DNA of 32,000 nucleotides, taken from contig NZ_CP011041.1 in NCBI RefSeq assembly GCF_002310835.1, forward strand, positions 2,760,001 to 2,792,000, read 5' to 3'. Positions 11,228 to 11,761 of this stretch are shown piece after piece. The stretch comes from Pseudoalteromonas tetraodonis. GTDB taxonomy: Bacteria; Pseudomonadota; Gammaproteobacteria; Enterobacterales; Alteromonadaceae. The notes below the pieces were generated by a model that saw only the letters and a list, made by a program, of their open reading frames with translations, did not search any database and was not told the DNA's origin. The position numbers and the translations under genes are program-made. Numbering within the stretch: position 1 is the first letter of the stretch; every line of letters begins with the position of its first letter.

Positions 11228-11761
11228 AGCGGTCAGCGGTCAGCGGTCAGCGGTCAGCGGTCAGCGGTCAGCGGTCAGCGGTCAGCGGTCAGCGGTCAGC
11301 GGTCAGCGGTCAGCGGTCAGCGGTCAGCGGTCAGCGGTCAGCGGTCAGCGGTCAGCGGTCAGCGGTCAGCGGTCAGCGGTCAGCGGTCAGCGGTCAGCGG
11401 TCAGCGGTCAGCGGTCAGCGGTCAGCGGTCAGCGGTCAGCGGTCAGCGGTCAGCGGTCAGCGGTCAGCGGTCAGCGGTCAGCGGTCAGCGGTCAGCGGTC
11501 AGCGGTCAGCGGTCAGCGGTCAGCGGTCAGCGGTCAGCGGTCAGCGGTCAGCGGTCAGCGGTCAGCGGTCAGCGGTCAGCGGTCAGCGGTCAGCGGTCAG
11601 CGGTCAGCGGTCAGCGGTCAGCGGTCAGCGGTCAGCGGTCAGCGGTCAGCGGTCAGCGGTCAGCGGTCAGCGGTCAGCGGTCAGCGGTCAGCGGTCAGCG
11701 GTCAGCGGTCAGCGGTCAGCGGTCAGCGGTCAGCGGTCAGCGGTCAGCGGTCAGCGGTCAG
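11228..11761. repeat. Perfect heptanucleotide microsatellite, (AGCGGTC) x 76 plus 2 nt
   Basis: Read directly from the sequence. The repeat phase is consistent at each 60-nt line start from 11228 to 11760, with no indels or substitutions seen. The first mismatch is at 11762. The array is intergenic, 75 bp upstream of the namZ start. Confidence 0.97.

Follow-up and report, generated by a model that had tools for sequence, protein, structure and literature searches.

We analysed a 32-kb stretch of Pseudoalteromonas tetraodonis DNA (contig NZ_CP011041.1, positions 2,760,001 to 2,792,000), called the window below and our whole scope for the source genome, for a tandem array of the heptanucleotide AGCGGTC that lies between a LytTR response regulator gene and the operon headed by namZ. 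The array is a genuine non-coding, spacerless simple-sequence repeat, and we consider it probably a product of replication slippage. The genes flanking it on both sides are all on the minus strand, and the namZ operon runs namZ, a beta-lactamase-family gene and a gene for an NhaC-type transporter, with namZ first. The features that define the locus, numbered from the first letter of the window, are:

11228–11761, AGCGGTC on the plus strand, (GACCGCT)n in the namZ-sense strand: perfect heptanucleotide array (Tandem Repeats Finder and exact string comparison)
9980–11152, minus strand: namZ, exo-beta-N-acetylmuramidase family (Pfam NamZ_N and NamZ_C)
11166–11162, minus strand: namZ ribosome-binding site, AAGGA
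11182–11210, minus strand: predicted namZ core promoter (conservation in a six-lineage alignment)
11210–11202, minus strand: invariant CTGCTCTTT, at the -35 position
11190–11189 (TG) and 11187–11182 (TATTTT), minus strand: extended -10 element, consensus TGnTAYTTT
12152–12946, minus strand: LytTR response regulator, the upstream neighbour and last gene of a cassette, with a kinase gene beside it

A first-pass annotation had described an uninterrupted run of 76 units plus 2 nt, GC-rich in otherwise AT-rich intergenic DNA, non-coding, distinct from clustered regularly interspaced short palindromic repeats (CRISPR) and 75 bp from the namZ start, and all of this held up. By exact string comparison, the 534 bp at 11228–11761 consist of 76 full AGCGGTC units and a final AG, free of substitutions and indels, and Tandem Repeats Finder returned a period of 7, 76.3 copies, 100% matches and 0 indels. 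The two-unit 14-mer AGCGGTCAGCGGTC occurs 75 times, as against 0 times in 100 dinucleotide-preserving shuffles, so the array exceeds chance length; with its head-to-tail units and absence of spacers, it has the makeup of a simple-sequence repeat. Its G+C content is 0.71, compared with 0.32 in the left flank (11153–11227) and 0.37 in the right flank (11762–12151), and the gap from the namZ ATG to the array measures 75 bp. We ruled out a CRISPR array, since CRISPR consists of ~24–48-nt repeats with unique spacers and the units here are spacerless and 7 nt long. A protein-coding tandem repeat was also ruled out: the plus strand of the array contains no ATG, GTG or TTG and no stop codon, its three frames being rotations of SGQRSAV, and all plus-strand frames are shut by stops at 11213 (TAG), 11220 (TAA) and 11227 (TAG, overlapping the first AG); the minus strand has a TGA once per unit. 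Rfam covariance models gave no match at the gathering score and one chance-level match (E = 0.97), outside the array. The array itself is not a repetitive extragenic palindromic (REP) element, its strands having little or no self-structure.

Arrays of this kind interrupt short-read assemblies. Contigs from two Logan short-read assemblies with an identical NamZ protein (DRR237655 and SRR5690251) end 3–4 units inside the array, a contig of SRR5690252 ends 27 bp before reaching it, and the DRR237655 contig that approaches from the lytTR side also terminates 4 units into it. Junctions on both sides nevertheless recur in independent read sets and metagenomes. Metagenome contigs spanning the namZ array have periodic runs of 100 and 79 bp, and AGCGGTC arrays at other loci have runs of 128, 130, 79, 52 and 57 bp in short-read assemblies. 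We infer that runs of 100, 79, 128, 130, 52 and 57 bp are the minimum de Bruijn output for a true array longer than k, for k values of 99, 77, 127 and 51 and a fixed flank phase. Because the runs equal this minimum, all short-read copy numbers (4, 11, 12 and 14) are lower bounds only, and as proof of variation they were rejected, their lengths exactly matching those of k-mer collapse. The exact figure of 76 has one assembly as its sole source, and across strains the namZ array is present or absent as a block. One contig of Pseudoalteromonas sp. 9NakV-03 (L059, 2646–2775) carries the left flank of a 2-oxoglutarate (2OG)-oxygenase locus and the right flank of a locus with a gene for a 543-residue protein (L020); its array length is about k = 127, and it is probably chimeric, joined via the shared repeat.

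For six lineages of Pseudoalteromonas, the genus to which all named NamZ relatives belong, we aligned the 96 bp that precede the namZ ATG. The alignment holds, in order, the invariant CTGCTCTTT, TGnTAYTTT, a conserved ribosome-binding site and the ATG; similarity ends abruptly upstream of CTGCTCTTT, and the DNA beyond is unrelated between lineages. Because a sigma-70 consensus scan of 10900–12400 found no promoter match in the namZ gap, conservation is the sole basis of the promoter call. A scan of the same interval, which covers the lytTR–namZ gap, found no intrinsic terminator. The first-pass annotation had offered two readings, an operon promoter in the 75-bp gap (TGtTATTTT) or a promoter upstream of the array with 76 units in the mRNA leader. 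The former is the better one, as the element lies in the six-lineage conserved block. The latter is less likely: since this block lies between the array and namZ, the array would be upstream DNA, not mRNA leader. With a start site predicted near 11175, the near end of the array would be at about -53. Given a promoter so predicted, the array would fall outside both the -35/-10 interval, whose spacing it would leave unchanged, and the leader, and would be neither transcribed from that promoter nor translated.

The first-pass annotation had also proposed that orthologous namZ upstream regions be compared. We did so with contigs encoding an identical LytTR protein and with other NamZ lineages, and found that the array belongs to a strain-variable block and that a second heptamer tract, (CCTAAAA)n, differs in copy number. 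The features concerned are:

11222–11832: strain-variable block, consisting of AGAATT, the array and a 71-bp segment
11214–11221: AGGTTTTA, left copy of the 8-bp direct repeat flanking the block, a residual (CCTAAAA)n unit in namZ sense
11833–11840: AGGTTTTA, right copy, expanded in other strains to 2 units (L129) or 10 (L139)
L124 10988–11036, L139 3046–3115 and L140 705–760: (CCTAAAA)n tracts elsewhere
11810–11832, plus strand: REP-like element, GTAG plus the imperfect hairpin GTAGGCGGGAGTTTACCTCGCGC, at the far end of the 71-bp segment
11838–12121: dispersed ~200-bp repeat (R-unit), two partial copies, between the block and the lytTR stop codon

In namZ sense the layout is ...cattgCTAAAACCT / GCGCGAGG...(71 bp)...TTATTACC (TGACCGC)n TAATTC / TTAAAACCTAAGCTGCTCTTT..., where the slashes are the block limits. 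The block is present in L125, L127, L128, L129 and L139 and absent from L124 (GCA_001924935.1), L140 and the more distant Scap03 and P. translucida, so that even strains with an identical LytTR protein differ in its presence. L124 and L140 have (CCTAAAA)7–8 in place of the block, L139, a JGI metagenome contig, has (CTAAAAC)10 plus the GACCGCT array, and L129 has two CTAAAAC units. Across strains (CCTAAAA)n is thus found in 1, 2, 7, 8 and 10 copies, of which the counts of 1 and 2 cannot be assembly artefacts. By this comparison the array has been gained or lost within a larger indel that is nested in the second heptamer repeat. Scap03 and P. translucida have neither repeat upstream of namZ, and in Pseudoalteromonas sp. 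M30B23 the namZ promoter edge bears a 7-periodic tract that is GC-rich and degenerate; three lineages thus carry three 7-periodic tracts at one spot (GACCGCT, CCTAAAA and a degenerate GGNNNCG). The A-tracts of CCTAAAA sit where an UP element would lie, and if either repeat tunes the promoter, CCTAAAA may be a better candidate than the long array.

The first 22 nt of the REP-like element are identical in M30B23, where it likewise lies upstream of namZ, and M30B23 variants of the element change GAG/CTC to GGC/GCC with stem pairing kept. In M30B23 the region upstream of namZ (L134, 1950–2900) is a ~1-kb intergenic repeat 'junkyard', where degenerate GC-rich 7-periodic tracts and (AAGGTTA)n tracts crowd together with REP-like GTAG hairpins that point either way. 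REP-like elements stand beside heptamer tracts in three species and were not found in 200 kb of control sequence; as a universal companion the element was rejected, being present at 3 array-bearing regions and missing from most. We also rejected the 71-bp segment plus array as a mobile unit, the segment having been found at the namZ locus alone among the fetched loci, with one metagenome match to the same locus.

To the right of the block, the R-unit had been placed ~50 bp from the array; the actual gap is ~77–100 bp (starts at 11838 and 11863). The R-unit recurs at 20505–20901, and its matches were to Pseudoalteromonas replicons only. Beyond it lies the cassette, with genes for a TonB receptor, GH16, GH3, the kinase and the LytTR regulator (12152–20177; 8.6 kb, probably for beta-glucan use), bracketed by direct ~200-bp R-unit copies at 11863–12089 and 20505–20731, 8642 bp apart. 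In Scap03 and L140 the cassette is absent from this position and namZ adjoins a tRNA cluster. The cassette looks like an insertion; it is conserved in Alteromonas and, without GH16, in Rheinheimera. At 20383–21726 a tRNA-Ser gene stands with three tRNA-Arg(ACG) genes. Behind them come several partial tRNA-Arg copies in decay, and every one of these carries a terminator-like hairpin; the same tRNA-Ser/tRNA-Arg arrangement is found in Scap03 and L140. On a TARA metagenome scaffold (L130, 1246–2792), an insertion sequence with an rve-family transposase follows the R-unit downstream of lytTR, replacing the array and namZ.

The unit is not confined to namZ. A survey of one genome per species for stretches of at least four AGCGGTC units found at least 120. 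Among the matches listed, at least 9 stretches from at least 5 Pseudoalteromonas species are not homologous to the namZ locus, and the arrays occupy at least 6 mutually non-homologous loci in the genus. Also among the matches listed are Cyanobacteria, Acidobacteria, Streptomyces and others, with exact arrays in Moorena, Oscillatoria, Stenomitos and Tildeniella. A tblastn search with (SGQRSAV)10 against 72,556 plasmid and chromid records retrieved no exact-unit array, related units only; viral contigs gave 14 matches, mostly high-GC and short. The other Pseudoalteromonas arrays lie between convergent genes. Read in AGCGGTC orientation, they begin 0–1 nt past, or overlap, the stop codon of a long same-strand gene (a 2OG oxygenase, a SerA-like gene for a 409-residue protein, or genes for proteins of 449 and 543 residues) and are followed by an A-rich tract, with a terminator-like hairpin at around half of the loci. 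The same site can be occupied in two or three different species, with flanks that have diverged (~80% identity by eye). At the 2OG-oxygenase locus we found:

L159: at least 11 x AGCGGTC
L160: 4 x AGCGGTC
AP025589.1 (complete genome; L162, 2705–2795): 13 x AGCGGTA
CM129604.1 (complete genome; L161, 2705–2837): 15 x AGCGGTA plus 4 x AGCGCTA
P. mariniglutinosa: no array

The array-bearing genomes at this locus encode an identical 234-residue protein, and the two complete genomes establish true turnover in copy number (13 versus 19) and in unit sequence. The unit has switched from AGCGGTC to AGCGGTA, giving a TAA per unit, and the four AGCGCTA variants at the 5' end of the CM129604.1 array are a snapshot of a new unit spreading. 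Together with the presence or absence of the block and the copy differences in CCTAAAA, the 13 versus 19 units of these sister arrays indirectly support the view that turnover of AGCGGTC-type arrays may be high. Secondary arrays with the related units AGCCGTC, AGCCGTA, AGCTATC and AGCTGTT lie near primary ones, and a TNAGC core is common to neighbouring and related arrays. Chromosome II of P. shioyasakiensis has a 29-copy imperfect array of AGCCATC, AGCTTTC and AGCCGTC downstream of isocitrate lyase. Other arrays of AGCGGTC and its AGCGGTA variant have 4–19 copies, the short-read counts being lower bounds, and the 76 copies at namZ stand far above these.

Every perfect repeat with a 5–11-nt unit in ~200 kb of fetched loci had period 7. 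We rejected the notion of a Pseudoalteromonas full of heptamer repeats, given that the first 200 kb of the complete second replicon of P. shioyasakiensis, taken as an unbiased sample, contain no heptamer array; the choice of loci and local clustering explain the fetched set. In 128 kb, a small sample, where 7-mers of matching composition average 5.4 occurrences, single AGCGGTC copies number 2–11 per rotation and show no skew. A Chi-like or uptake-sequence-like motif was thereby ruled out, single heptamers being neither over-represented nor strand-skewed in these 128 kb. Across all taxa, 48 top-strand open stretches terminate no more than 60 nt from an array, 19 of them at -2 to +3; this abutment is partly trivial, because a T, TA or TG before A(G)CGG... 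makes a stop codon. In Pseudoalteromonas sp. P1-25 (L057, 73–426) a heptamer array supplies the TGA stop of a 117-residue minus-strand open reading frame, and no more than 1.5 kb away there are two more heptamer arrays, (CTGATAG)6 and (TAGCTGT)9. Among the AGCGGTC arrays of high-GC taxa (Streptomyces and others; L004–L123), 68 of 127 lie inside long open stretches, which may be (SGQRSAV)n-type peptide repeats or an artefact of scarce stop codons.

Array orientation was read from local GC skew over loci of 3–8 kb. With the array removed, the AGCGGTC strand is C-rich at z <= -2.5 in 5 of 7 independent Pseudoalteromonas loci, and its skew is significantly positive at none of the 7. In the window most genes, all four tRNA genes among them, lie on the strand opposite AGCGGTC. 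A replication-orientation rule for all taxa was rejected, as there was no overall bias (30 versus 28 significant loci); the bias is found within Pseudoalteromonas only. Folded as single-stranded DNA, the AGCGGTC strand reaches -13.6 kcal/mol per 84 nt and its GACCGCT complement 0; as RNA both strands are poorly structured, GACCGCU no better than shuffled sequence. Repeat instability depends on the direction of replication, as is established for triplet repeats in E. coli.

Taken as a whole, we read the array as a slippage-driven heptanucleotide microsatellite of extreme length with a neutral or weak effect on namZ, and put the probability of this at about 0.6. Slipped-strand mispairing during replication would both make the array and keep it uniform, and gain and loss of units that are frequent relative to point mutation would keep such arrays uniform yet persistent across species. 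They would occupy permissive DNA bounded by constrained sequence, here the namZ promoter block and elsewhere a stop codon and terminator; the site itself is a repeat-accumulating intergenic stretch from the 3' end of lytTR to the namZ operon. If the nascent lagging strand is the hairpin-prone AGCGGTC and the lagging template the structureless GACCGCT, expansion would be favoured over deletion, and the common orientation of the arrays fits such a bias. The effect on namZ would be small, in that 0.5 kb of GC-rich repeat takes the place of AT-rich DNA beyond -53 and displaces the DNA farther upstream.

Several points weigh against this explanation. The short-read counts for the namZ array are all lower bounds, and copy-number change there is predicted. 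Pure slippage leaves unexplained both the recurrence of AGCGGTC at unrelated loci and the precise abutment to stop codons; single AGCGGTC copies are not over-represented and heptamer arrays are sparse (0 in the unbiased 200 kb). The 7-bp tracts that recur at -45/-53, at the edge of the namZ promoter, could mean selection for tunability instead of a hotspot of mutation. Finally, the GC-skew test of orientation uses short loci (3–8 kb), where gene-strand composition may confound it.

By its properties, the array is filed with the long heptanucleotide simple-sequence repeats of prokaryotes. As far as the survey of Mrazek et al. 2007 is relayed in PMC4679880, heptanucleotides are the commonest class of long simple repeat in many prokaryotic genomes; the array resembles such repeats (5–11-nt units) in that they are mostly intergenic, perfect or near-perfect heptamers and phylogenetically scattered (Mrazek et al. 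2007 via PMC4679880). It differs from the other long repeats seen in our analysis in having 76 perfect copies, as against 4–19, or 29 imperfect ones. The cyanobacterial short tandemly repeated repetitive (STRR) heptamers form a comparable class. TAACTGA heptamers, which are known from marine Beggiatoaceae, cyanobacteria and Bacteroidetes, with up to 43 copies in some Bacteroidetes, likewise place one heptamer at many loci in distant phyla, at gene boundaries and with possible stop-codon overlap (PMC4679880). However, TAACTGA sets mostly have 2–6 copies, lie directly upstream of start codons and put stops in all forward frames, whereas AGCGGTC arrays are longer, are open in the three sense-strand frames and, in Pseudoalteromonas, follow stop codons between convergent genes. 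Like REP elements and bacterial interspersed mosaic elements (BIMEs), the array is extragenic and clustered in repeat-rich intergenic DNA, and the block ends in a REP-type GTAG hairpin; unlike these, it is not palindromic, and most AGCGGTC arrays have no REP-like element nearby. A literature search for AGCGGTC or heptamer repeats in Pseudoalteromonas found nothing specific, and as far as it reached the genus has not been described as rich in such repeats. As far as our searches show, the extreme length in a free-living marine bacterium, the return of a single unit at many loci in Pseudoalteromonas, its placement hard against stop codons and the common orientation would all be new.

The closest functional analogue is the hmw promoter repeat of H. 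influenzae, which the first-pass annotation had cited while calling arrays of this length unusual. The precedent stands; the length is extreme and yet precedented, since the 7-bp arrays of hmw promoters reach 43–63 copies (PMC10127715). As at hmw1A and hmw2A, a tandem heptanucleotide array lies upstream of an operon, there with tens of copies, up to 63 in gap-free genomes, that change by slipped-strand mispairing (PMC10127715; PMC2424069). Unlike here, copy number at hmw has been shown to control transcription, of adhesin genes under host selection; the present array stands upstream of the predicted core promoter of a cell-wall-recycling gene in a free-living marine bacterium, and its unit is also arrayed in the 3' regions of unrelated genes.

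The analogy underlies the hypothesis, already in the first-pass annotation, that the array is a 'contingency locus', in which copy number sets transcription of the namZ operon in heritable, reversible states. We regard such tuning as unlikely. The array does lie at the upstream edge of the conserved namZ promoter, different 7-bp tracts occupy the same position in three lineages, and the copy number of CCTAAAA varies between strains; in the cited precedent, 11–14 copies permit expression and 15 or more abolish it (PMC10127715; PMC2424069). However, upstream of -53 the array alters neither promoter spacing nor the leader, and at 76 copies one unit more or less would hardly matter if no protein reads the units. 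Scap03 and P. translucida do without any repeat upstream of namZ, the AGCGGTC arrays elsewhere sit between converging 3' ends of genes, where tuning of a promoter does not come into question, and namZ is a housekeeping-type gene of peptidoglycan recycling, not a surface antigen.

The recurrence of the unit raises a broader and, in our judgement, quite unlikely idea, namely that in Pseudoalteromonas, and perhaps in other phyla too, AGCGGTC-type heptad arrays form a class of genome element in their own right that is read by a protein or by the replication or termination machinery. The traits of the class may be a TNAGC core with two variable bases, placement after stop codons between convergent genes, a fixed replication orientation and retention across species. 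If so, the namZ array would be a 76-site binding platform at -53 whose hypermutable copy number would set how much of the reader is captured.

We give little credence to the proposal that the array is a transcriptional insulator, in which read-through RNA from lytTR, a (GACCGCU)76 richer in C than in G and unstructured, would load Rho and halt transcription before namZ. The absence of an intrinsic terminator between lytTR and namZ is in its favour, as is the GACCGCU strand, with 43% C and 29% G, an RNA fold no stronger than that of shuffled sequence and no stable structure as DNA. The argument is one of composition alone, and by the standard usually applied to Rho loading sites GACCGCU is not poor in G. 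Moreover, array-less strains and species keep the same gene order (L124), and at other loci the sense strand of the upstream gene is the opposite, G-rich one.

Rated below this, and very improbable, is a protein-binding heptad platform, in which each unit, or every third one (21 bp, two helical turns), binds a protein and the array serves as a tunable enhancer or a regulator sponge. A protein that does bind tandem 7-bp heptads is the omega repressor of plasmid pSM19035; one candidate reader here would be the neighbouring LytTR regulator, whose best NCBIfam match is BtsR. In namZ sense the array reads ...CTGACCGCTGACCGCT... and gives ACCGCTGA every 7 bp and hence every 21 bp. LytTR sites are generally two 9–11-nt repeats 11–13 nt apart, and heptamers provide a 21-bp phasing. 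The site oligonucleotide of E. coli BtsR (YehT) contains CTGACCGCTTA-N10-ACCACTCA, with half-sites ACCGCTTA and ACCACTCA 13 nt apart (PMC4847170); the namZ-sense CTGACCGCTGA resembles the half-site CTGACCGCTTA, and the unit agrees with ACCGCTTA at 7 of 8 positions. The TNAGC core common to the neighbouring and related arrays also suits a shared reader. However, the 21-bp phasing is trivially met by any heptamer array, and by our estimate a random one would have a ~2% chance of a motif match of at least 7/8, in a comparison made post hoc. With 155 bits, the regulator falls short of the BtsR cut-off of 246 and is thus not a BtsR ortholog, and no ACCGCTNA pairs at 20–22 bp spacing were found elsewhere in the window or upstream of the cassette in three genomes, where the sole shared motif, AACTCGYCTTGKCG, looks different. 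A BtsR-type LytTR operator is therefore unsupported, and the resemblance of the unit to the half-site is probably coincidence. The cassette is kept in Pseudoalteromonas, Alteromonas and Rheinheimera, but the gene downstream of it changes from one genus to the next, so its pairing with namZ is not conserved; L124 has the same regulator and no GACCGCT array, and no LytTR gene lies near any other AGCGGTC array.

That the array or its length was made by the assembler is hardly credible: tandem repeats are error-prone in assembly, 76 is known from one assembly and short-read assemblies of such arrays are collapsed, with at least one probable chimeric join (L059), but junctions on both sides come from independent read sets and metagenomes, the breaking of other contigs at the array or their collapse to k-mer length is expected if the true array exceeds k, and k-mer collapse cannot yield a 534-bp array in the interior of a 32-kb contig.

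Even if they have no function, such arrays are of practical interest, as they break or collapse short-read assemblies and can mis-join contigs. Why seven-base units dominate the long repeats of many bacteria, and whether they have a role, has been a question since these were first catalogued, and this locus offers an extreme case in a culturable and genetically tractable marine genus. It comes with natural controls in block-less sister strains, in the CCTAAAA copy variation at the same promoter edge and in AGCGGTC arrays that differ between near-identical strains. The locus thus makes both promoter tuning by copy number in a non-pathogen and the reading of a recurrent unit by a protein open to experiment.

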